From the NCBI GenBank assembly GCA_021287065.1, contig JAJTBE010000006.1, positions 1 to 25,746 on the forward strand: a DNA stretch of 25,746 bases, in the 5' to 3' direction. Shown piece by piece: positions 1 to 25,723 of the stretch; the stretch's first letter is position 1; each line of letters begins with the position of its first letter. Both the position numbers and the translations under genes were made by a program. The DNA comes from Bacillota bacterium. GTDB taxonomy: Bacteria; Vulcanimicrobiota; JAJTBE01. The notes beneath the pieces were generated by a model that did not search any database, had not been told where the DNA came from, and was given only the letters and a program-made list of their open reading frames with translations.

Positions 1-273
1 CGGGGGACCGTGGGGGTTGGGGACCGTCAGAGGGAACCACGCTTTTTTAAAAAAGCGAGGTTGCCCTCCGAACCTCCCTCCTTGAAAAACAAGAGTATTG
101 GGCTGGAAATTGGAGTAAGTTTTACTAATTCAGTGGCATTGGGATTTGGGGACCCTCAGAGGGACCCACGCTTTTTTAAAAAAGCGAGGTTGCCCTCCGA
201 ACCTCCTTCCTTGAAAAACAGAACTCCTGGGCTGGGGGATTTGAGTGGATTTTTACTAATTCAGCGGCATTGA
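1..273. repeat. Two tandem copies (~14-133 and ~138-270) of a ~115-bp repeat module ('module A'). Each carries the perfect 18-nt palindrome cgcttttttaaaaaagcg (40-57; 169-186) flanked by 'ggggaccgtcagagggaacc' and 'gaggttgccctccgaacctccctcc'. The element is probably truncated by the window edge.
   Basis: Direct self-similarity inside 1-273 and to 13891-14010 (rc), 20905-20990 (rc) and 21826-22020. The ORF 10..273 (GTG start, no RBS) is a translation artefact of the repeat. Confidence 0.8.
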
Positions 274-471
274 GACGGACCCTGCCGGTCCTCGTCGAAG
301 CTGGAAGCCTCTCCTGCGATCCCTTGCTAAGCTTTTTGTTGTGCGGGATATTAGGTTGCTTAACAGCAGTAGCAGGCGATGTTGTTGTATCGAGCCGGAA
401 ATAAATTTACCGGGTTCAGCAGAGACTCAAACCGATTTAACTTCCTATGGTTGAAATAGTTTGTCTTTTTT

Positions 472-1839
472 TTGAAAAATCTGATAGAATTAGTATTGTA
501 TTCAGCAACAGTTTTTGAAAGTGAGCAGGTTATGTATCAGTATAAGGATTTTTTCAGAGGAACAGTTGAGGAAATTGAGCAGCGGCAGAATGGCCGTATA
601 AGGGAGATGGTGGAATATGCATACCACAATTCTTTCTTTTACAGGGAAATGATGGATATTGCAGAGGTGAAGCCTCAGGATGTGCAGACTGCCGGAGATT
701 TGAAAAAACTGCCCATAACAAGAAAAGATGATCTCCGGGAGTATAATGACAGATTTTTTGCGGCTCCCCGTTCTCGCTGGCTTGATATTGCCAGTACATC
801 GGGATCTACCGGTGCCCCTGTTTATATTCCGTTTACCCTGAAGGATATGGAAAGGATTTCTCTTTACGGAGCGCAGACTCTCAGCCTTTCCGGGCTTTCC
901 GGGGAGGATACGGTTCATCTTACCCTGCCAATGAGCGCCTGGCTCTGGATGGCAGGTTTCGGATTTTATTTCTGTTTTACAACTCTTGGAACCGGCGTTA
1001 CCCGCTTTGGTCCGGGGTTTTCCGAAAAATCCATAAGAATCATTCAGGAAACCTCTTCAACCGCCCTGATGGCTGCGCCGTCGTTTGCGCTCAAGCTGGG
1101 CAGGGAGATTAAGAGAAAAGGGATTTCCCACAGTATTAAACGCATCTTTATTGTTGGCGAAAATGTCCTTGACAGGGATTTAAAGAAAAACGGTCTGGGC
1201 AGGATGATTGAAGAAGCCTGGAATGCCGAGCTTTTCTCCTGTTACGGCGCTACGGAAGGTTGTTTTGTTACTGTGGAATGCAGCGCTCATAACGGACATC
1301 ATATCAACCCTGATGAGGTTTTCTTTGAGATTCTTGATCCTGATACTCTCGAACCTGTGGAAGACGGAAAAGAGGGGCTTGTTGCTATTACCCCCCTCGG
1401 CGTTGAGGGCATGCCTCTTCTCAGATACATGAACGGAGACAGATCCTATCTGATTCCCGGACCCTGCCCCTGCGGCAATATGCATAAAAGATTAGGCCCA
1501 ATACTTGCCCGGAATGATCACATGGTTAAAATCAAAGGTGTAATGGTATATCCTGACGCTGTAAAAAATGTGCTTTCTGAGAATGGAATTGTGATGATGC
1601 AGGTTGAGGTGGTTGAAAAGGATTTTGCCAATCATCTTATTGTATATATCCCTGCAAAACCGGGGGATAATACGGCATTTGAAGCTTTTATACAGGAGCA
1701 GATCCGGAGAAAACTGGGTGTCACTCTTGAGGTAAGAGCTATTGAGGAAGACGAACTTAATCACAGAATTATGCCGGAAGCTACCCGCAAGCCGGTGGTA
1801 TTTGTTGATAACAGACCAAAAAATAACGACAGGAATTAA
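472..1839 (+). CDS. Phenylacetate-CoA ligase / coenzyme F390 synthetase family adenylate-forming enzyme. The track start 472 is TTG; the more likely start is ATG 532 (MYQYKDFF...).
   Basis: Length and motif order are typical of the PaaK family: 'TSGSTGAPVY' AMP-binding P-loop-like motif, 'YGATE' and a C-terminal 'VKIKGVMVYP' region. There is no shadow-ORF competition. Confidence 0.8.
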   Translation: MKNLIELVLYSATVFESEQVMYQYKDFFRGTVEEIEQRQNGRIREMVEYAYHNSFFYREMMDIAEVKPQDVQTAGDLKKLPITRKDDLREYNDRFFAAPRSRWLDIASTSGSTGAPVYIPFTLKDMERISLYGAQTLSLSGLSGEDTVHLTLPMSAWLWMAGFGFYFCFTTLGTGVTRFGPGFSEKSIRIIQETSSTALMAAPSFALKLGREIKRKGISHSIKRIFIVGENVLDRDLKKNGLGRMIEEAWNAELFSCYGATEGCFVTVECSAHNGHHINPDEVFFEILDPDTLEPVEDGKEGLVAITPLGVEGMPLLRYMNGDRSYLIPGPCPCGNMHKRLGPILARNDHMVKIKGVMVYPDAVKNVLSENGIVMMQVEVVEKDFANHLIVYIPAKPGDNTAFEAFIQEQIRRKLGVTLEVRAIEEDELNHRIMPEATRKPVVFVDNRPKNNDRN

Positions 1840-1889
1840 ACTTCCGTCATAGAAAAAAAATCTGCAATTTAATTATCAGGGGTGGCAAA

Positions 1890-3419
1890 ATGGCACGAAT
1901 ATTCGAACACCAGAGCAAATCAGTTTTAAATAAGTTTAAGATAGGCATCCCCAGAGGAAAAACAGCTTCCACGCCTGAAGAGGCAGAGCAGATTGCTGTT
2001 GAATTCAACTGCCCTGTAGTGGTAAAAGCCCAGACCTGGACAACTGGAAGAGCAGGCACAGGGGGGATTAAATTTGCCGATACCCCGCAGCAGGCAAAAG
2101 AAGCTGCTGCATCGATCATAGGGCTGACTATAAAAGGATTTACCGTTGAAAAAGTTCTTGTTGAAGAGAAGCTTGATATCGAAAAAGAGTATTATGCGGG
2201 TATAATAATAGATGATTCCCATGCGTCGCCGGTTATGATATTCTCGGCGGTCGGCGGAACGGGAATCGAGGAGATCGCCAGGGAGCACCCTGATAAAGTG
2301 ATCCGACACACCATCGATATAAAAGAGGGGCTTCCTGATCATCATGCCCGAAACCTGCTTCGCAAAGTCGGCATCAGTGGGGCTGAACAATCAAAACTTG
2401 CCGATTTTCTGGTGAAACTTTATACCGCAGCGAGAACCTATGAAACCCGCTCGGCTGAAGTGAATCCTCTGGTAAGGGTGAAATCAGGCGATATTCTTGC
2501 CGCCGACTGCCATATGACTATTGATGATTATGCGGTTTTCCGCCATCCCGATTTGGGAATAGAAATTGCGAGGGAACTTTCAAATCCTCCGTCAGATCTT
2601 GACAAAATTGCATTTAATGTTGAAAAGAATGATTACAGGGGAACTTTCTATTTTATCCAGATGGAAAGGGAATTCTCCGGAGGTCAGGGATATGTGGGCT
2701 TCCACGGAGCCGGTGGCGGCGGATCCATGATGAGTATGGACGCTGTTCTTGCCGAGGGTTTCAAAATAGCCAACTTCTGCGACACATCGGGCAACCCCCC
2801 TGCTTCCAAGGTTTACCGCGCTGCTAAGATTATTATGGCACAGAAGGGAATCGATGCTTACTTCGGTTCCGGTTCAGGGGTTGCTTCTCAGGAGCAGTTT
2901 CATTCAGCCAGAGGCTTAGTTAAGGCGTTTCGTGAAAACTGGGTTACAATCCCCGTCGTAATGAGGCTTGGCGGCAATCAGGAAGAAAAAGCCATCGAGA
3001 TTATGACCAATTACACCAGAGATCTTCCTGCACCCATCGAATGTTACGGCAAGGAAACCCCTGCTTCACAATGCGCCCGCAGACTCAGGGAACTTGTGGA
3101 TAAGGCTGAAATCAGGGATATTCCGAAACCTGAAGAAAAACCCCACAAAGATGATTATGCCTTCAAAACGGTTTCCGGCGGTCAGGTTTCCTTTGACTAC
3201 AGTTATTGCGACAAGTGCGAATCAAAGGCTTGTGTGAGTGAATGCGTGCCTAAGATTCTTAAACTTGAGGAAGGCAGACCCGTTCTGGCAATCTCTGAAG
3301 CAGATGCCGCCAAAGGCAAATGCACCGAATGCCTCTGCTGCGAACTGGAATGTCAGTTTAAGGGCAACGGAGGGGGCAAAATCGACCTTCCCATAGCAGG
3401 TTTAAACGAATACAAATAG
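1890..3419 (+). CDS. Succinyl-CoA synthetase beta (SucC)/ATP-citrate-lyase-like ATP-grasp plus CoA-ligase domain protein, with a ~120-aa C-terminal Cys-rich extension of possible Fe-S/ferredoxin type ('CDKCESKACVSEC...CTECLCCELEC').
   Basis: Collinear similarity to E. coli SucC from memory: 'MARIFEHQSKSVL..TPEEAEQIA..PVVVKAQ..GGRGKAGG' N-terminus; 'EVNPLV..GDILAADCHMTIDDYAVFRHPDL'; 'GFHGAGGGGSMMSMDAVLAEG..ANFCDTSG'; 'PVVMRLGGNQEE'. RBS aggggtgg lies 6 nt before ATG 1890. Confidence 0.88.
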   Translation: MARIFEHQSKSVLNKFKIGIPRGKTASTPEEAEQIAVEFNCPVVVKAQTWTTGRAGTGGIKFADTPQQAKEAAASIIGLTIKGFTVEKVLVEEKLDIEKEYYAGIIIDDSHASPVMIFSAVGGTGIEEIAREHPDKVIRHTIDIKEGLPDHHARNLLRKVGISGAEQSKLADFLVKLYTAARTYETRSAEVNPLVRVKSGDILAADCHMTIDDYAVFRHPDLGIEIARELSNPPSDLDKIAFNVEKNDYRGTFYFIQMEREFSGGQGYVGFHGAGGGGSMMSMDAVLAEGFKIANFCDTSGNPPASKVYRAAKIIMAQKGIDAYFGSGSGVASQEQFHSARGLVKAFRENWVTIPVVMRLGGNQEEKAIEIMTNYTRDLPAPIECYGKETPASQCARRLRELVDKAEIRDIPKPEEKPHKDDYAFKTVSGGQVSFDYSYCDKCESKACVSECVPKILKLEEGRPVLAISEADAAKGKCTECLCCELECQFKGNGGGKIDLPIAGLNEYK

Positions 3420-3518
3420 ATGGAGATTCCATCCCCATATCGGCATTTACCCATTATTCCGCCGGTTTTCCGGATCTCTGGCGGAACTGGTTATTAACAT
3501 AATATTTGAGGTTTTAAG

Positions 3519-4961
3519 ATGCAGGTTCATGATAAATATATAATCTACAATCCCACTGTGCAGACAGCTTCGGCAGCTCCCAAATCTGAGCCGGTTAAAC
3601 TTACACCGTCTGCCTGGCAGAAGGAAACTCTCGGCGCTCTTGAGCTTTTTGACGAGAAAAAAACAAAATTTTCTCCCCTGACTGATTCAGGTTCAAAACA
3701 GGGGGAAAAAACCGGCCGTGAAGCTCCGGCGGCAGAGTCTCCCGCAGCTTCAGGGGGCGGAGAGGCTCAGACAGTTGAAAACTCTCAGGCAAAAGAGATT
3801 ATCAATGCACCAAACGGCAACGAGGTTCTCAAGCCCGGGTTTGTGTTGAAAAATGACCAGCATCCCCATATTCACAACAAAAAGCTGCAGGATGGAAACA
3901 ACCCACAGCCTCTGATTGAAGGCGCTCCCAATTTCAGAAAAGTAAAGGATGAAAATACCTATGGGGTAGGGCAGCCTACCGTTGACGGTATGAAAGCTGT
4001 ATTGAAGGAAGCTGGTGCAGCTCCCGGATGCGAACCTCAGAAAAAAGCAGTCTGGGTAAATCTGCGTGAAGAACCTGTGGTCTATATAAACGGAAAACCT
4101 CACAACCTCCGTCAGGACGGGGACAAAACCATATTTAAGAATTTCGAGAATCCCGGCGCCACCAAAGAAGATGTGGAAGCTATGGAAAAGAAGATGAAAG
4201 CTGAGATTCTTGAAGAAGCAAAGAAAAACGGCGGAAAAATGCTTGTAGCCGATGAAACTCCCGATGGCAAGGTTGTTTACAAGTGGGAAAAAGTTGATGA
4301 AAATTCAGTGAAAACCGTCGGCGAGGTTTATGACGACCTCAAAAAAGAAGGTTATAATGTTGAATACGACCGGGTTCCAATCACTGATGAAAAGAAACCG
4401 GAGCCAAAGGATTTCGAATCACTGACCGACAGGCTCAAGGGTGTGGACAAGGACACTCCCGTTATTTTCAACTGCCACGCAGGAAGAGGCAGAACCACAA
4501 CCGGAACTGTAGTTGCCAGCATTATCAGAAAAAACCAGAACGAGGAAGCTTCCGGCAAGTTCACCAAAAATCAGGGTATAAAAGATGATATCCGGGAACA
4601 GGGCAATTATTCACGAACAGAATACCGCAAGATTTTCAACTTTATAAACCTGATTCAGAAAAATCCCGCTTCGAAAGATGAAGTGGACAAGCTTATCGAT
4701 AAGAATTCGGATATGCAGAACCTTCGTGATGTTATCAAAACAGAAAAGGAAAAAGCAGGCGGATACAGCGGAAAAGCTCAGGATTATCTTGAACGCTACC
4801 ACAGCCTTATTTCCTATGATGCTTATGTAAAAGCGGAGGGTCCCGGTTTCAGTAAATCCTATACCCAGTGGTCAAGCGAACATCCGGAAATTAACCAGCA
4901 GATTGAAACAATCAGAACTGCGATGCACTTCCCCGGAAATCTTACAACAGCGGCGGCATAG
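3519..4961 (+). CDS. PTP-like phytase / paladin-type cysteine phosphatase domain protein (CX5R P-loop 'NCHAGRGRTTTG' and upstream 'EGAPNFR' motif). The N-terminal ~90 aa are low-complexity Ala/Gly/Pro/Ser-rich with no signal peptide.
   Basis: Both motifs are hallmarks of the PTP-like phytase family (established knowledge). RBS gagg lies 7 nt upstream of ATG 3519. Confidence 0.85.
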   Translation: MQVHDKYIIYNPTVQTASAAPKSEPVKLTPSAWQKETLGALELFDEKKTKFSPLTDSGSKQGEKTGREAPAAESPAASGGGEAQTVENSQAKEIINAPNGNEVLKPGFVLKNDQHPHIHNKKLQDGNNPQPLIEGAPNFRKVKDENTYGVGQPTVDGMKAVLKEAGAAPGCEPQKKAVWVNLREEPVVYINGKPHNLRQDGDKTIFKNFENPGATKEDVEAMEKKMKAEILEEAKKNGGKMLVADETPDGKVVYKWEKVDENSVKTVGEVYDDLKKEGYNVEYDRVPITDEKKPEPKDFESLTDRLKGVDKDTPVIFNCHAGRGRTTTGTVVASIIRKNQNEEASGKFTKNQGIKDDIREQGNYSRTEYRKIFNFINLIQKNPASKDEVDKLIDKNSDMQNLRDVIKTEKEKAGGYSGKAQDYLERYHSLISYDAYVKAEGPGFSKSYTQWSSEHPEINQQIETIRTAMHFPGNLTTAAA

Positions 4962-5678
4962 ATGGACGATCAGCAAAAAATCGGAAATGAAACAGAACAG
5001 GAAAAGGACCTGAACCTCCTTGTGGAATGGGAGGATGAAGCTTCTGCTTCGGAATTGTCTGAAAAAGACGGCGAAGATGATGTTCTTTCAATTTCTTCTG
5101 CTGAAACTTCAAAAGAAGATGACAGTTCATTTGAGGGAATCACCATCAGGAATGAATCGGAAGAAGCACACCTTCTTTCAATAGCTGGAACGGGAGACCC
5201 CCATATATGCTTTGGAGCGGAAGCATTTCCCGAACTTCCTGAGGAAGATGAATTCAAATGGAGCGACGAACTCGACCGTGCCATTGATGAAGCTCTGGAA
5301 CAGATGAGCGGAATTTCCGCTCCTGTGGTATATTCAAGGCTGAAAAGGATTACTGCTTTATTTTCCGCCGGAGATATAACCAGAGAAAGAGCATTATTTC
5401 TTCTGGATGAAGTTGACACTTATCTGAAAAAGCAGATAACAATAAGGGTAAATGCCATTCCCATCGCCCACGAGGGAATGCAGAAAGCTCGATCGCTGCT
5501 CCTTGATGCTTTATACTCATTTCACGAATCCTGCGCCGCCCTGAGAAACTACATAAAAACCGATGCGGAAGAAGACAGGGTTCTTGGTGAAAACCTTGCA
5601 GAACACGGAATCGCAAACGCCCTCGAAGGCGTAGAGGAAATGCTCGGTGCAGAACCCGGGGAGTATGAGGAAGAATAG
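4962..5678 (+). CDS. Highly acidic (Asp/Glu-rich) 238-aa hypothetical protein. Its start codon directly abuts the stop of the upstream phosphatase gene.
   Basis: Long ORF with a coding-like composition. Stop TAG 4959-4961 is followed at once by ATG 4962, suggesting translational coupling. No recognisable motifs. Confidence 0.6.
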   Translation: MDDQQKIGNETEQEKDLNLLVEWEDEASASELSEKDGEDDVLSISSAETSKEDDSSFEGITIRNESEEAHLLSIAGTGDPHICFGAEAFPELPEEDEFKWSDELDRAIDEALEQMSGISAPVVYSRLKRITALFSAGDITRERALFLLDEVDTYLKKQITIRVNAIPIAHEGMQKARSLLLDALYSFHESCAALRNYIKTDAEEDRVLGENLAEHGIANALEGVEEMLGAEPGEYEEE

Positions 5679-5752
5679 CTTCCTGAAGGTGTTTCCTGCT
5701 GAAGGCATAATTATAATCTAAATACATTTTTACCAAACAGGAGAAGATAAGG

Positions 5753-6853
5753 GTGAAGGAATCGAAGCCTCCGGGAATTATGATTTCCGGTTATTACGGA
5801 TTTGGGAATGCTGGGGATGAGGCAATACTTGCATCTATTGTGCGGCAGTTGAAGAAGAACATCCCAGGCGTCCGCATTATTGTTCTTTCAGAATCGCCTC
5901 TGGAAACCGCAGCAGCTTTTGATGTGGAATCCCACAACCGGAAAGATATGCTTGGTATTATGCGCCGTATGAGTAAAATCGATCTGCTTATCAGCGGAGG
6001 CGGGGGCTTAATTCAGGACAGCACCGGTTTTTCCACTGTTACATACTATCTTGGCATAGTTCAGATGGCTAAGATGCTTGGTAAGAAAGTAATGTTCTAT
6101 GCTCAGGGTCTTGGACCCCTCAATCTTTCAAAAAGCAGAAAATTTGCTGCCTTTGTTATGAATCAGGTTGATTTTATAACATTTCGTGATGAAGATTCAG
6201 TTACTCTTGCAAGAGAAATAGGGGTAACAAAACCACCTATTCATGTAACCGGAGATCCGGTGTTTGCTCTGGAAGCGCCCGGGGATGATATTCTTGATCC
6301 TGTGGCAAAGGCTGAAAAACTTGAGCCGGGAGCATTCAGGCTCGGTATTTCTGTTCGCCCGTGGAAGACGGATTCTGATTATATTGCTGATATTGCAAAA
6401 ACCGCAGATTTTTTTGTGAAGGAAAAGAAAGCTTTTGTTTATCTTTTTCCTTTTCAGGAATCACAGGACCTTGAAATATGCAAGAAAATCCAGCGACAGA
6501 TGGAGAATACCGCACGAATTATTCCCAGAAAGTATCCTGTTGATGTTATGCTTGGTCTTATGGGCCGTATGGACATGGTTCTCGGAATGAGGCTCCACTC
6601 CCTGATTTTCTCCGTTGTGCAGAATACTCCGGCAGCAGGAATCTCATATGATCCCAAGGTATCAGCGCTTTGCGAAATAGCCGGGCTTCCCTATCTTCAT
6701 CTTGATGTTGTTACAAAGGACAGTATTATGGACCTTGCATTGTCCGTATATGAGAAAAAAGATGACATAAAATGGAACTTACCGGCAAAAAGCAGTGTTT
6801 TAAAAGAGAAGGCGGAAAAAAACACCCAGCTGCTTATCGAAAATCTGCTTTAA
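5753..6853 (+). CDS. csaB: Polysaccharide pyruvyl transferase, CsaB family. GTG 5753 has an RBS; the alternative start is ATG 5780.
   Basis: N-terminal 'ISGYYGFGNAGDEAIL' is the signature start of CsaB/pyruvyl-transferase proteins, and the length (366 aa) matches. RBS aggaga lies 7 nt before GTG 5753. Confidence 0.8.
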   Translation: MKESKPPGIMISGYYGFGNAGDEAILASIVRQLKKNIPGVRIIVLSESPLETAAAFDVESHNRKDMLGIMRRMSKIDLLISGGGGLIQDSTGFSTVTYYLGIVQMAKMLGKKVMFYAQGLGPLNLSKSRKFAAFVMNQVDFITFRDEDSVTLAREIGVTKPPIHVTGDPVFALEAPGDDILDPVAKAEKLEPGAFRLGISVRPWKTDSDYIADIAKTADFFVKEKKAFVYLFPFQESQDLEICKKIQRQMENTARIIPRKYPVDVMLGLMGRMDMVLGMRLHSLIFSVVQNTPAAGISYDPKVSALCEIAGLPYLHLDVVTKDSIMDLALSVYEKKDDIKWNLPAKSSVLKEKAEKNTQLLIENLL

Positions 6854-7015
6854 AAGAACATTTACAGGAACTGACCCTGAAGTAATAGCGGTTAACAATA
6901 CCCGGCTTTTGGGGCAGCTTCTTTTTTAGCGGATGATGCCTTAAGCCTGCAGAAAAACTGTTTCGAATTATTTACGCAGGCAGCCCCTCAGAATAAATTA
7001 TAAGGGGGACTAAAA

Positions 7016-8005
7016 ATGTTGAAATTAAAATATGGTATCACCGCTGTTCTCGTTCTGTTGATTTCATTCATTTTGATTTTGTTTCAGGGAAAAACAGAAG
7101 AAATACACGCCCACCCGAATGCAGATGCCCACCCTGCTGTAGGAGCTTCCCCCGGCCTTGCTGTTTCGCCTGAAGCTGCAGAGGCATTTGCATTGCTTGA
7201 TAAGGGGAAATATACCGAACTGCAGGAAAAACTCAGAAAAAATCCCTCTCTGCTGAATGTAAGAAATGCAAATGGTGAAACAATGCTCAATATCTGCTCG
7301 AAATACGGCGTGAGAGATTTCTGTGTTCTGCTGGTGCAAATGGGAGCTGATGTTAAGATTAAGGATCTCAACGGACTGACCCCACTGCACGGTTCTGCCC
7401 TTTCCGGAGATATTCAAATAGCTGAGCTTCTGCTGAAAAAAGGCGTAAACATAAATTCCACAACTTCAAGGGGGATGACTCCCCTCCATTTTGCCGCAAT
7501 GCGCGGAGATGAAAAAATGGTGAAGTTTCTCAAAGAAAAAGGGGCGGAAATACATGTGAAAGACAGCTTTTATGGATATACTCCCCTTCATCTGTCTGCC
7601 AGAAACGGAAATCTGGCGGTAGTCGAATTCTTTCTTAAATCGGGAATAGATGTTAATGAGAGAGATGCAGGCGGATGGACCGCTCTTCATTGCGCAGCGG
7701 CATCCTGCAGAAAGGAAGTGTGCCGGATCCTTATTTCCAGAGGAGCAAGACTCAGTGCAGTAGGCAACGGCGGAGAATATCCCGTGCATGAAGCTGTTAT
7801 GAGCGGAGATCCCGACACTCTCAGTTTTATTCTTGATTGCGGTGCTGATATAAACTGTGTTGATAAAGACGGCAGAACACCCCTCGACTGGGCTGACGAG
7901 CAGCCTCACCTTAAAGGACTTCTTGAAGGAAGGGGAGCAAAAAGAGGGAAAGATCTAAAACCTGATATCTGGCAGGATTTTAAGAATTTATTTTGGAATA
8001 ATTAG
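7016..8005 (+). CDS. Secreted or membrane-anchored ankyrin-repeat protein (N-terminal hydrophobic signal 'ITAVLVLLISFILILF', about 6 ANK repeats).
   Basis: Repeated 'G.TPLH.A...G' ANK consensus (e.g. 'NGLTPLHGSALSGDIQIAELLLKKGVNIN', 'GMTPLHFAAMRGDEKMVKFL'). RBS aaggggga lies before ATG 7016. Confidence 0.85.
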   Translation: MLKLKYGITAVLVLLISFILILFQGKTEEIHAHPNADAHPAVGASPGLAVSPEAAEAFALLDKGKYTELQEKLRKNPSLLNVRNANGETMLNICSKYGVRDFCVLLVQMGADVKIKDLNGLTPLHGSALSGDIQIAELLLKKGVNINSTTSRGMTPLHFAAMRGDEKMVKFLKEKGAEIHVKDSFYGYTPLHLSARNGNLAVVEFFLKSGIDVNERDAGGWTALHCAAASCRKEVCRILISRGARLSAVGNGGEYPVHEAVMSGDPDTLSFILDCGADINCVDKDGRTPLDWADEQPHLKGLLEGRGAKRGKDLKPDIWQDFKNLFWNN

Positions 8006-8022
8006 TTGAAGCGAGGTGCAAC

Positions 8023-8358
8023 ATGGGACTTACGAGAAATCTTGAAATAATCAGAGACATTCTGGCGAGAGAGCTGGAAACTGTCAGCACATACCAGCGC
8101 TGGGCTGAGGAAGTGGACAATGAAGAGCTGAAGAGAATGATTGGCCACATCCGTGATGAAGAAAAGGAACATATTGCAGAATGCTATAAATACCTTTCCC
8201 TTCATGACGCAACACAGGATCATGCCAATGAGGAAGTTGACGAAGAACATTTTCCAAATGGTGTTTTTGTCGCAACCCCTGCAGGAGAAGCATCACCGGA
8301 AGCAGAGGAAAACAAATCACTTTCTCCTGATAGCCTCACCGTCGGAAGCCTGAAGTAA
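8023..8358 (+). CDS. Encapsulated-ferritin (EncFtn)-like ferritin-fold protein carrying a C-terminal encapsulin cargo-loading peptide ('...SPDSLTVGSLK*').
   Basis: The core 'ELETVSTYQRW..ELKRMIGHIRDEEKEHIAECYKYL' parallels the characterised EncFtn motif '..AVDWYDQR..ELTAILAHNRDEEKEHAAMTLEWL' (Glu/ExxH metal ligands; quoted from memory). A P/E/A/S-rich linker precedes the terminal 'LTVGSLK', matching the family-1 encapsulin targeting-peptide consensus. RBS gaggtg is present and the gene starts 17 nt after the ankyrin gene. Confidence 0.85.
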   Translation: MGLTRNLEIIRDILARELETVSTYQRWAEEVDNEELKRMIGHIRDEEKEHIAECYKYLSLHDATQDHANEEVDEEHFPNGVFVATPAGEASPEAEENKSLSPDSLTVGSLK

Positions 8359-8365
8359 AGCTCCG

Positions 8366-8809
8366 ATGAAGTATGATAAGGAAAAGCAGATATTCAGAGA
8401 TTTTCTGAAAAAGAAGAATCTAAAGCGAACTGAACAGAGGGATATAATCCTCGAAACCTTCCTTAAACTCGAAGGTCATATTTCACCTGAGGATTTTTAT
8501 CAGAAGTTGAGAAAGAAACATCCTGATATAGGGCTTTCTACCGTTTACCGCACCTTAAAGCTGTTCTCAGAGTGCGAACTTGCCCGGGAAGTTCAGCGCC
8601 GGGATGGAGGCACTCTTTTTGAACACGAACACGAACACCCCCACCACGATCATATGCTCTGTAGTCAATGCGGGAGATACTTTGAATTTTATGACGATCT
8701 TGTTGAGAGGCTTCAGGAAGATATTGCTCATAAACACAACTTCAAAATGACAGGCCATAATCTGGAAATTTTCGGCATCTGCAGCGGTTGCCAGACTGAA
8801 CAGGAATAA
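8366..8809 (+). CDS. fur: Fur-family metal-responsive transcriptional regulator (Fur/PerR/Zur-like).
   Basis: 'RTEQRDIILETF', 'STVYRTLKLF', a His-rich metal site 'HEHEHPHHDH' and a C-terminal CxxC...CxxC pair. The gene starts 7 nt after the EncFtn stop, so it is probably co-transcribed. Confidence 0.9.
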   Translation: MKYDKEKQIFRDFLKKKNLKRTEQRDIILETFLKLEGHISPEDFYQKLRKKHPDIGLSTVYRTLKLFSECELAREVQRRDGGTLFEHEHEHPHHDHMLCSQCGRYFEFYDDLVERLQEDIAHKHNFKMTGHNLEIFGICSGCQTEQE

Positions 8810-8971
8810 CGCCGGCTTTTAAAAACAGGTTTCCACCGGATTCCTGATTTGCGCGTTAATTCATCATCGTGAAGCAGCTCCGCCGTTATAGCCTGAATTC
8901 AGTCTGAATGGTATAATAAGCATACTGTCTATTTTTTGATATGGATCTATTATAATTTTCAGGGGGATATG

Positions 8972-10081
8972 ATGAAAAACAGGATAAAACTCCACAGGTA
9001 TTTCTTTGTTATTTTTGCAATTGTGGTAGCTGCCTTTCTTGCAAACACCTGCATGACTTCCTGCGCAGCGCCGGCTTCAAAACTGAACTGGGCTATAATT
9101 TCCCGCACCGGAGATCAGATCTATCCTTCAATGGTTGTGGTGTTTTCCACAGCGAAGCTTGAGGAGAAAAAAGAGCCGAACACAATGGGCATGCCTTTGG
9201 GACTGCTTGGCGTTTATGTGGTTTCGCCTTCTGATAATGCAAAAGTAAAAGTTGTCATCAACAGCCCTAAACTGGTGAAAACCAGTGTTTTCGAAGGAGT
9301 TCTGCCAAAAGCCGGGGTTAAGTATAAAATTTATCCCCATATCAAATATGATTATGATCAGCTTTACAAAGTAAGGCAGATCTTCCCTGAAGATGTTACC
9401 GCTGAAGTCTTTATCAACGGAGTTTCACAGGGTGAGAAGAATAAGATATTCTCCGTAATGTCTCTTAACGATTGTGTTTATGAGATGATAAACGGAAATG
9501 ATGAAGTTGATATATCGTGGATGTTTGCCGCCTATGTAAATGAAAATCATCCCCTTGTGGAGCAGGTTCTGAAAGAAGCCCTTAAAAAAGACATCTCTTC
9601 CTTTGCAGGTTATCAGGGAAATGCAGAAGATGTAAAGGCTGAGATAGAAGCTATCTGGCAGGCTCTTCAGGACAGGGGAATCAAATACAGCAGTATCAGT
9701 GTCCCCTCAGTTTCCTCCGACTATGTCAGCTGCCAGCATGTAAGGCTTCTCGGCGATTCCCTCAAAGGAAGTCAGGCAAACTGCGTCGATGGCACAGTGC
9801 TGCTTGCTTCAGTTCTGAAAAAAATTGAGCTTAATACTTATCTGGTAATGAATAATGAGCATATGTATCTTGGCGTCGATCTCACGGAAGACGGCAAAAA
9901 GAGAATATATATCGAAACAACAATGATTGACGATTCTGATCTTGATGATGCCATTCAGGCTGGAAAAGAGCAGTTTCAGGAAGATCAGAAGAAAAAAGGC
10001 GAACTCATTATTCTCAATGTTGATGAAGCCAGAGAAATGGGTGTTATGCCTCTGAAAGATGTCGGAAATAAGGCGGAATAG
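8972..10081 (+). CDS. Secreted hypothetical protein with an N-terminal signal peptide (MKNRIKLHRYFFVIFAIVVAAFLA...). The track start 8936 is upstream of the RBS; the likely start is ATG 8969/8972.
   Basis: RBS aggggga lies 5-7 nt before ATG 8972. There is a hydrophobic h-region and a long ORF with no informative motif. Confidence 0.65.
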   Translation: MKNRIKLHRYFFVIFAIVVAAFLANTCMTSCAAPASKLNWAIISRTGDQIYPSMVVVFSTAKLEEKKEPNTMGMPLGLLGVYVVSPSDNAKVKVVINSPKLVKTSVFEGVLPKAGVKYKIYPHIKYDYDQLYKVRQIFPEDVTAEVFINGVSQGEKNKIFSVMSLNDCVYEMINGNDEVDISWMFAAYVNENHPLVEQVLKEALKKDISSFAGYQGNAEDVKAEIEAIWQALQDRGIKYSSISVPSVSSDYVSCQHVRLLGDSLKGSQANCVDGTVLLASVLKKIELNTYLVMNNEHMYLGVDLTEDGKKRIYIETTMIDDSDLDDAIQAGKEQFQEDQKKKGELIILNVDEAREMGVMPLKDVGNKAE

Positions 10082-10262
10082 TCGTCGGATTGCTGAATGT
10101 TAACATTTTGTTAATGTGAAGAATGTATTAAATTTCCGTCTTGCATGATAAAATAAGTTGTTGGAAAATACCGTGTTTTTGGCTTTTATCCATGCCAGCG
10201 AATCAGTTTTATCCGGAAAGTTAAGATAAAAGTTTGAATATTATTTTTTTGAGAGGTTAAGT

Positions 10263-12044
10263 ATGAACAATTCCCTGTCATCCGTAACCAGCAGCGAAAT
10301 CCGTTTCCCCTCAAGGATAGAATCGGGAAAGATTTCACAGCCACAGGCTCCTCCGGTAGGTGAGGAATCCCTTCCGAAAGACGGAGTTACCATTACCGGC
10401 GGACAGCAGCCCGCTCCCGAAGCTCCCAAAATGGTAAAAGTCAGCGTTTTTCCTCAGGATCCCCTGATGGACAAACCGGTTACCGACCAGATTGAGCAGT
10501 CCAAAATCGGAAAGAATCTCGAAGGACCCAGAGCAAAAGCTATGGATAGCAGCAAACCGGTTGCTATAGCGGATCCCGACGGAAACTTCTTCTTTGATCC
10601 GGTAAAACCCGAGTTTGATCAGGCAAGTTCTTTTGTTTATGTTTATAAGACTCTCGATATGCACCAGAATTATCTCGGACACGAAGTCAAATGGGCATTC
10701 AACGACAAACAGCTTGATATCAACTCACACGCCGGCGAAGATAAAAATGCTTATTATGCAAGATGGCAGCAGTCAGTCAACTTCTTCCATTTCGAATCAG
10801 CCCCTCTCGGCAAAACCATTCAGACAGCGCAGTCCGTTGATGTGGTATCCCACGAAACAGGCCACGCCACCCTTGATGGCATGAAACCCAAATACCTCGG
10901 CGGCTGGGGCGGAGAAACCATGGCTTACCACGAAGCGTTTGCAGACTGCACAGCTATGCTTTACACCCTTGGTTCCGAACACAATATCGGCAAGATTATC
11001 GAAGAGACAGGGGGAGACCTCCGTCAGAATAACAGACTCTCCATGCTTGCAGAAGAGTTTGGAAAAGCTATTAAACTCGAAAATACGGATCCGAACGACG
11101 ACAATAAAACCTGGCTGCGCAACGCCAGAAATGAATTTAAGTATGTCCCGCCGGATCAGCTTCCCGACCACGGTCCCAGAGATGAACTCACTGCTGAAGT
11201 CCACAGCTTCTCAAGAGTATTCTCAGGCGCTTTCTATGATTGTGTGAACAGCCTTTATGACAGATTCGTATCAGAACTTCCCCCGCTTCCGCAGCCGGAA
11301 ACACCGGAAGGACAGCAGCCTCAGCCTCCTCAGCCCGATCGCATCGGTGCTCTGACAAAGGCAAGAGATGTTATCGGACCCCTTCTTGATAAAGGTACCG
11401 AACTCGCACCTACATCAGGAGCCACCTACAAGGAGATCGCCCTCGGAATGCTCAAGGCTGACGAGATGAACAACAACGGAGCTTATAAAAACGAACTGAC
11501 AAAGGTGTTCCTCGACAGAAATATTCTCACCAGCGATGATATTACTCAGACCAGAGCACTGGCAGATGTTAAGCTCGAAACACCCGTAGCCGGTAAGGAT
11601 GCCGCCCTCGAATTCCTTAAAGCCAATGCGGAAAAGATGGGCGTAGATGCTTCTGCATATACCGATGCCAATGTCATAACCAATAACAGAGGCGAAACAA
11701 TCATTGAGTTCGAAAGCTCCAGAGAAGTGCCTCTTTCACAGCATGGCATTTATCAGGTAGCCGGCGCCAGTGATCTTTACACCGATGTTTACGGCGGACT
11801 TACAGTGGCATTCGATAAATCGGGCAAACTGGTAAGCCAGTCGGAAGATCCCATTACACCTGAAAAGATTAAATCGGCAGTTGATCACATCAACAACGCC
11901 CGTAATGAGGAACTTATCCGCATGACTCCCCTCTACAAGGGCACAAACCTCTTTAAATCAAAGAATGTCCCCTATGTCGGCGAAGTTTATCAGGAGCCTT
12001 CAGGTAAGATGAAAATAAGGAGAATCCCCATTGCAGTGGATTAA
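10263..12044 (+). CDS. Thermolysin-like (gluzincin, M4-like) zinc metallopeptidase: HExxH 'VVSHETGHATLDG' and a downstream Glu ligand 'AYHEAFADCTAM'. It has a Pro/Gln-rich linker and no signal peptide.
   Basis: Spacing and context mirror thermolysin 'VVAHELTHAVTDY...(~20 aa)...AINEAISDIFGTLVEF' (established family knowledge). RBS gagagg lies 6 nt before ATG 10263. Confidence 0.8.
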   Translation: MNNSLSSVTSSEIRFPSRIESGKISQPQAPPVGEESLPKDGVTITGGQQPAPEAPKMVKVSVFPQDPLMDKPVTDQIEQSKIGKNLEGPRAKAMDSSKPVAIADPDGNFFFDPVKPEFDQASSFVYVYKTLDMHQNYLGHEVKWAFNDKQLDINSHAGEDKNAYYARWQQSVNFFHFESAPLGKTIQTAQSVDVVSHETGHATLDGMKPKYLGGWGGETMAYHEAFADCTAMLYTLGSEHNIGKIIEETGGDLRQNNRLSMLAEEFGKAIKLENTDPNDDNKTWLRNARNEFKYVPPDQLPDHGPRDELTAEVHSFSRVFSGAFYDCVNSLYDRFVSELPPLPQPETPEGQQPQPPQPDRIGALTKARDVIGPLLDKGTELAPTSGATYKEIALGMLKADEMNNNGAYKNELTKVFLDRNILTSDDITQTRALADVKLETPVAGKDAALEFLKANAEKMGVDASAYTDANVITNNRGETIIEFESSREVPLSQHGIYQVAGASDLYTDVYGGLTVAFDKSGKLVSQSEDPITPEKIKSAVDHINNARNEELIRMTPLYKGTNLFKSKNVPYVGEVYQEPSGKMKIRRIPIAVD

Positions 12045-12690
12045 ACTTAATAAAATAGTAGTAACCGGATTTCTGCTCATTGCTTTTATAGCAATGGGCA
12101 GAATTGTTTTTGCGTCGGAAATGGGCAAAGCAGCAACAAAAGGCGATTTGGCAAAGGTCAAATCCATAGCTGCCAAAAATCCCGGATCCGTGAATGAGAA
12201 AGATCAGGGAATGATGACCCCTCTTCACTATGCAGTGATGAACGGCCATAAAGCAGTAGCTGAATTTCTCATTTCAAAAGGCGCAAAGGTAAACGCCAGA
12301 GGCGAAGCAGGCGTAACCTGCCTTTTCCTTGCTCTCAATGAAAAGCATAAGGATATTGCCATTCTTTTAATCAACAAGGGTGCTGATGTCAACACCAGAG
12401 TTGAAAACGGAAAATCGCCCCTGCATGTTGCCTCTGAAAATGGATACATCGATGTGGTAAAAGCGCTTGTTTCCAAAAAAGCCAATGTCAACCCGAAAGA
12501 CGAAAACGGCGATACGCCTCTTCTTCTTGCAGTTGAAAAAAGCCACGCTGATGTAGCTAAGTTTCTGCTTTCGAAGGGAGCTAATGTCAATGCCCGTAAT
12601 AATTCGGGCCAGACCTCCCTGCGTATCGCCATGAGCAGCGGAAATAACGAAATGATAGAGTTGATCAGAAGTTACAGTGGAAAAGAATAG
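12031..12690 (+). CDS. Secreted ankyrin-repeat protein (signal peptide 'IVVTGFLLIAFIAMGRIVFA', 5-6 ANK repeats). TTG start overlaps the metallopeptidase gene end by 14 nt.
   Basis: ANK consensus repeats ('GMMTPLHYAVMNGHKAVAEFLISKGAKVNA', 'GKSPLHVASENGYIDVVKALV', 'GDTPLLLAVEKSHADVAKFLLSKGANVNA'). RBS aaggaga lies upstream of TTG 12031. The next in-frame ATG would delete the signal peptide. Confidence 0.8.
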   Translation: MQWIKLNKIVVTGFLLIAFIAMGRIVFASEMGKAATKGDLAKVKSIAAKNPGSVNEKDQGMMTPLHYAVMNGHKAVAEFLISKGAKVNARGEAGVTCLFLALNEKHKDIAILLINKGADVNTRVENGKSPLHVASENGYIDVVKALVSKKANVNPKDENGDTPLLLAVEKSHADVAKFLLSKGANVNARNNSGQTSLRIAMSSGNNEMIELIRSYSGKE

Positions 12691-12691
12691 T

Positions 12692-13714
12692 TTAGAATAT
12701 TCTTCCCATTGATTTGATCCGTTCTTCCATCTCTACCAGCAATTCCATCCAGCGGATATTGTAATAACGGGGGTGGCTGAGATCCATCTCGGTTTTGCCC
12801 TCAAGTCCTTCCCAGATAGCCAGAGCTGCCGGAGTAATGCCTCTTTTAGGTTCAAATCCGATAGCTCTTTTTATTTTGTCTCCGTTTACTCTGTATGAGC
12901 GTACCGGAGCGGATTCAAGATAACGGACATCAACTTCAAGCTGTTTCTTCTCTCTGAGAATATATTTAAGCCAGTGGGCAAGTTCAAGAATTCTGTAGTT
13001 TTTGTGGACAACATTGAAAATCTGTCCTTTTACCCGATCTTCCGGAGCATCAAGACAGGCGATGTATGCATCAACCGCATCATTAATGTCAAGAAGCGGG
13101 CGCCACATTTCGCCGCCGCCGTGGACTGTAACTCTGCCTTTGAGATATGCGTGGAGTGAAAAAGTATTGACGACCAGATCATAACGCATTCTGGGAGATT
13201 GTCCGAAAATCGTGCCTTTCCGGAGAATTACCGGGCAGAAACTATCGTCTTCAAGGGCTTTGAGTGCATTTTCGCCGTCAAATTTTGATTTTGAATAAGG
13301 TGCAGTGGGGCTTACCGGTGATTCTTCATCCAGCATTGTATCTTCAGGAGTGAGTGTATAATAAATGGAACAGGAAGATGCATAGACAAATCTTTTTACA
13401 CCTTTTTCCTTACAGGCTTCTGCAAGCCTGCGGGTTCCGATATGGTTCATTTCATCATTGGCTTTGGGATTGTATTCTGCAGTGGGATCGTTTGAAAGCC
13501 CTGCAAGGTGGATAACTCCGTCAATTCCGTCCAGAACCGAAGGCTCGACATCCCGGATATCGCCCTGAACAAGTTCTATGCGGTTTTCAACATCTTTAAG
13601 AGCGTCTTTTCCAAAATAGAGCTTGTCAAAAACCCTGACCTGTTTGCCCCGTTCGAGAAGCTGTTTGACCAGCAGACACCCTATATATCCGGCTCCGCCT
13701 GTTACAAGAATCAT
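12692..13714 (-). CDS. NAD-dependent epimerase/dehydratase (extended SDR family; GalE/UDP-sugar-epimerase-like).
   Basis: N-terminal Rossmann 'ILVTGGAGYIG' and catalytic 'YSKSK' (YxxxK). RBS aaggaga before the ATG. It is convergent with the upstream + strand block, 1 nt from the ankyrin gene stop. Confidence 0.9.
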   Translation of the reverse strand: MILVTGGAGYIGCLLVKQLLERGKQVRVFDKLYFGKDALKDVENRIELVQGDIRDVEPSVLDGIDGVIHLAGLSNDPTAEYNPKANDEMNHIGTRRLAEACKEKGVKRFVYASSCSIYYTLTPEDTMLDEESPVSPTAPYSKSKFDGENALKALEDDSFCPVILRKGTIFGQSPRMRYDLVVNTFSLHAYLKGRVTVHGGGEMWRPLLDINDAVDAYIACLDAPEDRVKGQIFNVVHKNYRILELAHWLKYILREKKQLEVDVRYLESAPVRSYRVNGDKIKRAIGFEPKRGITPAALAIWEGLEGKTEMDLSHPRYYNIRWMELLVEMEERIKSMGRIF

Positions 13715-13890
13715 AACTGTCTCCTTTCGGTTTATGAAAAAGTAAAAAATTCCAATAATAGATGTTTGTTCTTCAGATGGTTTCTATTACGGGCTTTTTA
13801 TTCCTCTGTTGTTCGATTTTTGATGAACAGGCAGGCTCATGGTTACAAAATTCCATGGTATCCCTGCAAAAAGGGAGGATTTAGACTAAT

Positions 13891-14165
13891 GTCACTGAAT
13901 TAGCAAAATTTACTCCAATTCCCAACCTAATACTCTTGTTTTTCAAGGAGGGAGGTTCGGAGGGTAACCTCGCTTTTTTAAAAAAGCGTGGTTCCCTCTG
14001 ACGGTCCCCAAACCCTACGGTCCCCGGTCGGTCCCCAATTCATAAGTTTTGGGAAGGAGGTCCGGAGGAAACTTTTTTCAAAAAAGTATCCTCCGGAAGC
14101 TGGGCAGACCGCTCCAGTTCCCGTGATCGACAAGATATATCTATGCCTTAATTCATGGGCATTGG
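13891..14165. repeat. Composite repeat element in inverse orientation. It contains module A (palindrome cgcttttttaaaaaagcg 13971-13988), three 'ggtcccc' direct repeats (14005-14040), module B palindrome ggaggaaacttttttcaaaaaagtatcctcc (14065-14095), and a 'cggaagctgggca...gccttaattcatggg' tail matching 21665-21730 (rc).
   Basis: Sequence identity to 1-273, 20905-21075 and 21665-22020. It sits in the 625-bp divergent intergenic region between the epimerase and the membrane-protein gene. Confidence 0.8.
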
Positions 14166-15802: not shown

Positions 15803-16594
15803 ATGGAAATCAGACCCTGCATTATCGGACCGGATCTTTCCATAAGTTCCGATATAGTATATTCAATAATCGACGGTCCCGGACTTCCTATGCTGGGCAT
15901 AAAGGGCGGATCCTGGGAAACTACGCTGCTTCTCGGAGAATACCGTGAAATTGCTCTGGGTATGGATTTGATTATGCCTATGACTCTTCAGGGCACAACC
16001 GGCAAAAATGAAGCGGATCTGAGTCTTAATCTCACTGAAGAACAGAGAAATATGAAAGGTTCATTCTGCGGCCTTTTTGGTTCGTATTTCATCTATCCCA
16101 TCGAAAGCGGATTCTGGGTGAAAGGAACCAACGGAAAATACCTGCTTGATATGAGAATCAACGCCACAGGCAATTATACAAAGGTTTTCGGAACTATCGG
16201 AAATGATAAAATCGAAATAACCATCAATATGATTACGGAAACCACAATTCTGGTCCGTGGCTTTCATGGCTCCCAGAAAATAGAGATAAATGTAATATAC
16301 GGCAATGAGGGTATAAAGATAAAAGGAACCCATGGACCACACTTCCTTGATTACACTGTTACCGCAGGTGAGGACAGGGTTACTACAAAAGGAATAACAC
16401 AGGATGGGTTTGTAAATTACGATATGGTTCTTGAAGATGAAAGCAGTGTGAGAATCAAAGGCAAACCCGGCAAACTTGAAGCGGATTATATGCTCAACAT
16501 TTACGGCAACGGAATTGCCGTTAAGGGTGATGTAGGACTTTTTAAAGCCGACTATGCGTTTGTGCTGGGACAGCTTGACGGTGAGTCCGAGTAA
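15803..16594 (+). CDS. 263-aa Gly-rich periodic repeat protein of unknown function, with about 8 copies of a ~22-residue '[IV][KR]G-x2-G-x3-5-[DN]Y' unit (e.g. 'IKGTHGPHFLDYTV', 'KGITQDGFVNYDMV', 'IKGKPGKLEADYML', 'VKGDVGLFKADYAF'). It is encoded 30 nt upstream of the MVP gene.
   Basis: AGGAGG RBS lies 7 nt before ATG 15803. The internal periodicity is visible by eye. It has no similarity to an encapsulin/HK97 fold or to known vault partners. Confidence 0.7.
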   Translation: MEIRPCIIGPDLSISSDIVYSIIDGPGLPMLGIKGGSWETTLLLGEYREIALGMDLIMPMTLQGTTGKNEADLSLNLTEEQRNMKGSFCGLFGSYFIYPIESGFWVKGTNGKYLLDMRINATGNYTKVFGTIGNDKIEITINMITETTILVRGFHGSQKIEINVIYGNEGIKIKGTHGPHFLDYTVTAGEDRVTTKGITQDGFVNYDMVLEDESSVRIKGKPGKLEADYMLNIYGNGIAVKGDVGLFKADYAFVLGQLDGESE

Positions 16595-25075: not shown

Positions 25076-25723
25076 TTAATCATCATTTCTATCGTCCCGT
25101 TTCAGTGAATATATGTGAGCTATCCATCCATCAGCAAGAGAAACATTCTTGATATTTCTAAAATTCTTTGCATCATATATCTTCTGCAGTTTTTCAGCCA
25201 GATAATAAGGTATATCTTTTTCCCAAGGTGATTTGTCAACTGATATTATGATAAAATTAAGATAGTCTCCATGTTCCTCATTTTCTGTACCTTTAATATC
25301 GATTATTACAGTACCTGAAGGATTGTAAGTCTGAACCTGAATAATTTTTTCCCATTCTTCTCCCCTTTGTATTGATGCTGAAGCGGGATACTTACTTATT
25401 ATTTCATAGGCAAAAGCTGAATCCGAGACCTGAGCTTTTTCTCCTCCTTTAACTATAACCATTGTCTTATCGCTGTCTACAAGTTGATCTACCACATCTG
25501 AAACTTTATCAAGGTTCCAGTTTGTCTTATCCGGAGGAATGGAGAAAAAAACAAAATCTCTCTTATCTTTCATTAATGATTCAAATTTTGGCAATATCCA
25601 TAAAGATGAGCTGCAAAAGCTGGCTATCAGTAATACTGTTAATAATGCCATTTTTAAAAATTTATGTTTTATTGCATCTATCCAAAAGACTGTGAATGTT
25701 GCAGTTAGTGGGGTTAGTGGCAA
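25076..25723 (-). CDS. Membrane-anchored hypothetical protein in an AT-rich segment (N-terminal TM/signal anchor 'MALLTVLLIASFCSSSLWIL'). The start is uncertain (TTG 25723 or ATG 25651).
   Basis: Long ORF on the minus strand in the visibly lower-GC terminal ~750 bp. No SD motif found and no recognisable domain. Confidence 0.5.
   Translation of the reverse strand: MPLTPLTATFTVFWIDAIKHKFLKMALLTVLLIASFCSSSLWILPKFESLMKDKRDFVFFSIPPDKTNWNLDKVSDVVDQLVDSDKTMVIVKGGEKAQVSDSAFAYEIISKYPASASIQRGEEWEKIIQVQTYNPSGTVIIDIKGTENEEHGDYLNFIIISVDKSPWEKDIPYYLAEKLQKIYDAKNFRNIKNVSLADGWIAHIYSLKRDDRNDD

Follow-up and report, generated by a model that had tools for sequence, protein, structure and literature searches.

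An encapsulated ferritin gene next to fur, with a conserved targeting peptide and probably a shell encoded elsewhere in the genome

A 25,746-nt stretch of contig JAJTBE010000006.1 (the window), from the metagenome-assembled genome (MAG) of an uncultured bacterium, carries at positions 8023-8358 of the forward strand an open-reading frame (ORF; ATG start, TAA stop) for a 111-amino-acid (aa) encapsulated ferritin (EncFtn) that ends in an encapsulin targeting peptide and is followed by a fur gene, with no encapsulin shell gene nearby. On balance, and with somewhat better than even confidence, we take this gene to specify a catalytically competent EncFtn-type ferroxidase that is a secondary cargo of a family 1 encapsulin whose shell gene lies elsewhere in the genome. 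A secondary cargo is a tag-bearing protein encoded outside the core operon of shell and cargo, and 27 Flp examples have been described (Giessen & Silver, bioRxiv 10.1101/085266; published 2017). The location of the window gene is that of such a cargo, as it bears the tag and lacks a shell gene in the up to 8 kb upstream and up to 17 kb downstream that flank it in the window. A core cargo, by contrast, has a Linocin_M18 shell gene adjacent to it, and the gene found here 7 nt downstream is fur.

The ferritin-like domain occupies residues 1-83 (8023..8271, + strand) and was recognized by Pfam, by PDB relatives, by an AlphaFold2 model and by Foldseek, in agreement with the original prediction of an EncFtn-type ferritin; both of the motifs on which that prediction had drawn are present, within RELETVSTYQR at residues 16-26 and HIRDEEKEH at residues 42-50. 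The Pfam EncFtn-like model PF22277 cleared its gathering cut-off of 27 by a narrow margin (29.5 bits, E = 6.4e-7). Three NCBIfam models matched below their cut-offs, namely EncB_fam NF058679 (73.1 bits, 1.8e-20, against 90) and TIGR04535 ferrit_encaps (58.3 bits, 6.8e-16, against 125), both aligned over the full length including the C-terminus, and the EncB model (55.6 bits against 210). Because all of the NCBIfam naming cut-offs were missed despite significant E-values, the protein is, as judged by these profiles, a divergent EncFtn member and not an EncB orthologue. A protein-database search returned 399 EncFtn homologues, nearly all of them already annotated with PF22277, and the closest solved structures by sequence were Myxococcus xanthus EncB (7S5C, 3.7e-9) and EncC (7S8T, aligned through LTVGSL), with further matches to other encapsulated ferritins including Rhodospirillum rubrum EncFtn (5DA5). 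In the AlphaFold2 model, for which 60 homologues were used, two long antiparallel helices are followed by a short third one (residues 3-30, 34-61 and 63-76, predicted local distance difference test (pLDDT) score >90) and by a tail that is disordered from about residue 77, and the best 50 Foldseek matches in the PDB were all EncFtn-family chains (target-normalised TM 0.68-0.94), the top one being 3K6C. With an ungapped offset of +15 to 5DA5, residues E17, Y24, E47 and H50 correspond to Rru E32, Y39, E62 and H65, and H42-xxx-E46-E47-K-E49-H50 fits the HxxxEExEH ferroxidase motif described for bacterial EncFtns (PMC11202242), indicating that the predicted ferroxidase residues E17, Y24, E47 and H50 are intact.

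The domain is followed by a P/E/A/S-rich linker (residues 84-104; 8272..8334, + strand) that is disordered in the model (pLDDT 42-62) and then by the family 1 encapsulin targeting peptide LTVGSLK with the stop codon (8335..8358, + strand), the protein ending in SPDSLTVGSLK. A targeting peptide of this family behind a flexible linker had been predicted, and both parts of that description held. The motif is the same as LTVGSLR, the tag of M. xanthus EncB, EncC and EncD, for which structures define the binding to EncA (PMC11126975), and the six core residues of the window tag are identical to those of this experimentally mapped peptide. No other ORF in the window has a targeting-peptide-like C-terminus. 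Codons were compared with those of the 81%-identical relative P0003. In the domain, 49 codons were identical, 28 differed synonymously and 6 nonsynonymously; among the 21 linker codons, these numbers were 3, 3 and 15, and among the 7 tag codons they were 1, 6 and 0. The substitution pattern of the tag differed from that of the linker (Fisher p = 6e-4) and was not different from that of the domain. LTVGSL was also kept in a 56%-identical relative, P0004, where all six codons differ from those of the window. These comparisons indicate that the codons of the targeting peptide are under purifying selection, and the conservation of the peptide at the protein level beside a diverging linker argues that something reads it.

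The absence of a shell gene from the window, which had been claimed from the ORFs, was borne out by every search made. Pfam and NCBIfam found neither Linocin_M18 nor any other encapsulin family among window ORFs of at least 100 aa, and a custom shell hidden Markov model (HMM), built from 12 verified Linocin_M18 shells and run on all six-frame segments of at least 30 aa, gave no match at E <= 10 either in the window or in the loci of its relatives. As controls, the 12 training shells had scores of 391-444 bits with this HMM, which also recovered a truncated shell at a contig end, absent from the training set, at 9e-24 (81 bits). The unannotated ORFs at 4962-5678, 15803-16594 and 25076-25723 were considered as cryptic shells and rejected, as they had no Pfam, NCBIfam or shell-HMM match and do not look HK97-like in sequence. 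Mis-assembly at 8358-8366, named at the outset as a way in which the adjacency to fur could be meaningless, was ruled out together with a horizontal-transfer junction at the same place: a second assembly, the Logan assembly of SRR17235527, is base-for-base identical to window 243-13923, the GC composition is even across the window, and the junction is conserved in relatives. Scans of the window for Rfam families, tRNAs and tandem repeats found nothing.

EncFtn genes outside the small clade formed by the window gene and its close relatives gave a measure of how unusual this arrangement is. A scan of GTDB representative genomes yielded 33 EncFtn-like loci outside the clade; the clade was represented in that collection by the K8T10 MAG only, the window's own MAG (locus-tag prefix LWY06; reads SRR17235527) not being among the representatives scanned. 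Thirteen of the 33 loci carried a TVGS/N-L-type C-terminal tag, and all 13 had a Linocin_M18 shell gene directly adjacent (12 complete, 1 cut by a contig end). The shell was likewise directly downstream of P0006 and P0007, which the protein search gave as the nearest EncFtn relatives beyond the clade, so that a shell was adjacent in 15 of the 15 tag-bearing homologues examined. Within this sample, the clade is an exception to a strong rule of shell adjacency. The original prediction had held that EncFtn is encoded immediately upstream of its shell, and this stands as a rule outside the clade; it is not universal, secondary cargo being a known category and M. xanthus EncC a known case. The gene for EncC (MXAN_4464), which carries the same LTVGSLR tag, lies far from that for EncB (MXAN_3557), which is beside the shell gene, and in Mycobacterium tuberculosis, BfrB has been proposed as a cargo whose gene lies outside the operon. 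The other 20 of the 33 loci encode tag-less short forms (66-101 aa) with no shell nearby. Tag-less short EncFtn-like proteins of 66-94 aa (L014, L018, L019, L023, L025-L029, L032-L038 and L040), from Thermoleophilia, Dehalococcoidia and other MAGs, were seen in two conserved contexts, near an FAD-dependent oxidoreductase gene or after the gene for GMP synthase, again with no shell nearby, and look like stand-alone s-FLP-type proteins.

Within the clade, the gene order is conserved. The protein database held only four close relatives, at 84, 81, 65 and 56% identity, and a scan of a metagenome collection with the clade alignment gave 422 pattern matches, of which none was confirmed as a clade member. 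Flanking DNA of 13-20 kb per gene was available for four lineages. In all four, down to 56% identity, EncFtn is followed by Fur with gaps of 7-18 nt, and Fur is directly downstream wherever context exists, that is, after 11 nt in L005/L006, after 18 nt in L001, and in the loci of the K8T10 MAG (L002-L004/L008). An ankyrin gene lies directly upstream of EncFtn in three lineages (the window, L005/L006 and L001), and the ribosome-binding site GAGGTG, read from the sequence at 8013..8018 (+ strand) of the window, is also found ahead of the EncFtn start codon in L005, L001 and L003. Outside the clade, no Fur homologue was present in any of 36 loci, and the Fur orthologues that come next in similarity (64-66% identity) have a UDG-family gene ahead of them and no EncFtn. 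Because P0006 and P0007 have the shell downstream and these next Fur orthologues lack EncFtn, the clade arrangement points to a relocation and not to an ancestral state; the simplest history would be that in an ancestor of this uncultured clade, which its relatives' names mark as Eremiobacterota/Xenobia-like, the cargo gene moved to a place upstream of the resident fur, the (ankyrin)-encFtn-fur unit having been kept since.

Some further observations were made on these relatives. One of the two next Fur orthologues, L045 (10001-10441), is on a 7.6-Mb ENA contig (ERZ21831104 ctg97552l), a near-complete genome of a relative, and lies about 2 kb downstream of an ankyrin gene; L046 holds the other orthologue. 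In the 56%-identical relative, the ankyrin-encFtn-fur unit is preceded by 5.4 tandem copies of a 41-nt sequence (L001 8094-8316, 94% matches), each with a short GAGG...CCTC hairpin, while the window has no tandem repeats. Relatives of the window genes are named Eremiobacterota, Xenobia or Vulcanimicrobiota, and for this reason the NCBI label of the MAG, 'Firmicutes bacterium', is probably wrong.

The neighbors of the EncFtn gene are those that had been described, ORFs and Pfam agreeing on both. Downstream, a 147-aa Fur-family metalloregulator (8366..8809, + strand; PF01475, 5.8e-35) begins 7 nt past the EncFtn stop. Upstream, a 329-aa ankyrin-repeat protein with a hydrophobic N-terminal segment (7016..8005, + strand; Pfam Ank_2, 3.4e-56) has its stop 17 nt before the EncFtn ATG. 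Given the gaps of 17 and 7 nt, the shared strand and the conserved gene order, the EncFtn and Fur genes are probably co-transcribed, with the ankyrin gene as the likely start of the transcription unit.

Taken together with what is known of homologous systems, a mechanism can be proposed. By homology, monomers with two long helices would pair so that E17, E47 and H50 form di-iron ferroxidase centers with Y24 nearby, and decamers would assemble. Presented on the disordered linker, the C-terminal LTVGSLK would enter the pocket with which shell protomers bind such peptides at their inner face; the enzyme would thus be packaged, and its Fe3+ product would mineralise within the shell. From the spacing of the genes, all three would be transcribed together, tying cargo supply to the expression or autoregulation of Fur. 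Supply would then follow iron or oxidative status, whatever the expression of the shell.

Several observations weigh against this picture of a trans-encoded, Fur-linked cargo. No shell gene was found, the DNA searched being the window and the clade loci, and in each of the four lineages the 13-20 kb surrounding the gene are free of one. In the K8T10 MAG (GCA_021107945.1), the EncFtn ORF ends at 85 aa, since a +1 frameshift and a TGA codon split the domain from a tag relic, KSKLTMGSLKK and a stop codon, that lies just before fur (L003 2999-3175, also L002 5460-5636). The 85-aa ORF is identical in three assemblies, and the frameshift appears to be a recent loss of targeting. Position 47 is K both in P0004 (L001 10001-10336) and in the K8T10 protein P0005 (L003 2741-2998), and Y24 is replaced by C in P0004, which keeps an intact LTVGSLQK tag despite its mutated site and, on these substitutions, may be a non-catalytic cargo. 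From these sequences, the domain evidently persists beside Fur without a tag and probably without catalysis as well. On the side of regulation, no canonical Fur or PerR box (7-1-7 consensus, at most 3 mismatches) was found upstream of the ankyrin and EncFtn genes in the four lineages, apart from one weak, AT-rich PerR-like match in L003. Short GAAT-N-ATT(C) palindromes, seen by eye in the window and in L005 at 15-35 nt ahead of the start codon, were not judged significant, and promoter and terminator predictions were no more frequent than in shuffled sequence. It is spacing and synteny that argue for the proposed co-transcription and Fur control.

The clade thus presents three states, with tag and site both intact in the window, the tag intact and the site mutated in P0004, and the tag severed and the site mutated in K8T10. 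The last of these, in which the link between domain and tag has been lost and the gene is still beside Fur, is what might be expected if EncFtn here is free-standing, that is, if the lineage has no encapsulin and a cytosolic decamer serves as a ferroxidase, an iron buffer or an iron-handling partner of Fur, the tag being a recent relic or having another purpose. The shell-free flanks of the clade loci and the 20 tag-less homologues with no shell nearby are in keeping with this, and the s-FLPs, which such a protein would resemble, form decamers all the same, NE0167 (3K6C) being an example (PMC11202242). A relic tag should decay, however, as it has in K8T10, and the tag of the window has 6 synonymous and no nonsynonymous differences beside a freely diverging linker and is retained at 56% identity. 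A purely free-standing storage role is also argued against by the finding that Flp cargos depend on a shell for holding mineralised iron in solution (PMC8346489). We therefore regard a shell-less EncFtn as a tentative possibility and somewhat doubtful.

A different question is what the regulator senses. Operons that join a Fur-family repressor gene with one for a di-iron protein are known from Clostridium difficile (rbr-perR-rbo), Desulfovibrio vulgaris (perR-rbr-rdl) and Geobacter (perR-rbr-roo), and since rbr-perR operons are common in anaerobes, the window unit could be an oxidative-stress operon of that type, with a PerR-like peroxide sensor and an EncFtn acting mainly in peroxide or oxygen defense. 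The regulator missed every NCBIfam equivalog cut-off, PerR models also match it (1.2e-22), and the lack of a canonical Fur box fits as well. Against this, Fur is clearly the better match, both among PDB entries (Campylobacter jejuni Fur at 1.8e-34 versus Bacillus subtilis PerR at 3.6e-21) and in NCBIfam (99-106 bits for Fur models versus 80 bits for PerR), so that a PerR-like sensor seems unlikely. It would concern the input signal only and is compatible with the trans-encoded cargo model. The coupling of EncFtn and Fur had been called unusual, and in part it is: no mention of Fur beside an EncFtn gene was found in the encapsulin literature searched. The arrangement nonetheless resembles the rubrerythrin-perR operons of anaerobes in bringing a gene of the di-iron ferritin superfamily and one for a Fur-family repressor into one, typically autoregulated, operon. 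It differs from them in that the enzyme is an encapsulin-targeted EncFtn, the regulator is more Fur-like than PerR-like, and no operator was found.

The window also encodes an 829-aa protein resembling major vault protein (MVP) at 16624-19113 (+ strand; Pfam MVP_shoulder 5.7e-30, Vault_3 and Band_7), whose residues 468-811 align with rat and human MVP structures (about 1e-17). Bacterial MVP homologues were described earlier (bioRxiv 10.1101/872010). In the protein database, over 6,800 relatives of this protein pass E <= 0.001, with 60-90% identity among the matches listed, and its named top matches are from Eremiobacterota/Xenobia, Desulfobacterales, Riflebacteria and Magnetoovum. Its gene is flanked by one for a protein of 263 aa that is repetitive and beta-rich and has no match in Pfam or NCBIfam (15803-16594, + strand) and by one for a radical SAM/SPASM maturase (19404-20615, + strand; DynA 4e-61 and anaerobic sulfatase maturase 7e-57, both below cut-off).

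The presence of this gene bears on a proposal that the tag is read by a non-HK97 partner, either the MVP-like shell encoded 8 kb downstream or the Fur or ankyrin protein of the operon. The tag is under selection though no shell gene is linked to it, and ankyrin repeats are protein-binding modules, here in a gene conserved upstream in three lineages. The peptide is, however, a canonical family 1 motif for which the EncA pocket is structurally defined, the MVP-like gene is near EncFtn-Fur at no other clade locus, and there is no evidence that points to recognition of the peptide by vault, Fur or ankyrin proteins. The size of the MVP-like family and its spread over several bacterial phyla also mean that its occurrence is not tied to that of the rare EncFtn clade. 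Reading of the peptide by such a partner is, in our judgment, highly improbable, and it is very unlikely that the lineage lacks any HK97-fold encapsulin while LTVGSLK is selected and read by another, MVP-like compartment or by the co-encoded ankyrin or Fur protein, an outcome that, if true, would couple a ferroxidase directly to iron sensing. Of the two explanations offered originally for a tag without a shell, a shell encoded in trans thus stands as the most likely and belongs to a known category, and a tag read by a different compartment found no support, the MVP-like gene being unlinked.

Other genes of the window were annotated as follows. The 381-aa protein encoded downstream of fur (8936-10081, + strand) has a hydrophobic N-terminal segment and no Pfam match and is not conserved at this place in relatives; it matches the first 300 of the 1,903 positions of the NCBIfam anti-phage ProA model (1.2e-24, far short of the cut-off). 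Next come genes for a 593-aa protein with a weak match to the thermolysin (M4) catalytic domain (10263-12044, + strand; 0.005) and for a second ankyrin-repeat protein, of 219 aa (12031-12690, + strand), the start of which is overlapped by 14 nt; the two may form a peptidase-ankyrin pair. A succinyl-CoA-synthetase-beta/citrate-binding ATP-grasp protein (1890-3419), a PTP-like phytase (3519-4961) and a TldD/PmbA metallopeptidase pair (22274-24944) are also encoded.

Compared with described systems, the trans-encoded cargo that we favor combines familiar features. It shares with M. xanthus EncB and EncC the two-helix EncFtn fold, the ferroxidase motif and the LTVGSL core, and with EncC the distance from a shell gene. 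It differs from them in that identity is only about 35-40%, the EncB_fam and EncB cut-offs are not reached, the shell partner is a putative one, and the gene is linked to fur and an ankyrin gene, a linkage not reported for EncB or EncC in the literature searched. The canonical EncFtn core operons of R. rubrum (Rru_A0973), Haliangium ochraceum and Thermotoga maritima have the same domain, fold, catalytic residues and linker with C-terminal tag; there, the shell gene is adjacent, whereas here fur is downstream and 25.7 kb contain no shell. Like the secondary cargos of Giessen & Silver, the protein has a fitting tag and location, but those cargos were defined in shell-encoding genomes, whereas here the shell is a predicted one, and a lineage-wide, fixed place next to fur was not part of that description. 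The s-FLPs (Nitrosomonas europaea NE0167, PDB 3K6C) also have this fold and no adjacent shell, and the K8T10 relative is effectively in their tag-less state, whereas in the window protein a long linker leads to a targeting peptide that is intact and under selection. A literature search combining encapsulin with names beginning in Eremiobacter found no papers, and neither Eremiobacterota nor Xenobia appears in the supplements of Andreas & Giessen.

The window EncFtn is thus most likely an 'orphan' only in being split from its shell, an already described kind of system, and what is new is the lineage-wide, selected placement of a cargo gene in an ankyrin-encFtn-fur unit, together with a natural series of tag and active-site decay. 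The three states of the clade offer such a series for testing the separate contributions of the tag and the catalytic site. The cargo survey of Andreas & Giessen 2021 was limited to 5 kb around shell genes, and surveys of this kind will therefore miss genes like the window EncFtn. The present picture of encapsulins is unchanged by this finding, which is a modest variation on cargo encoded away from its shell. If the shell is encoded elsewhere in the genome, this clade would uncouple the regulation of the cargo from that of the shell and tie a ferroxidase cargo to an iron regulator, which suggests that iron status can tune the loading of an iron-storage compartment.

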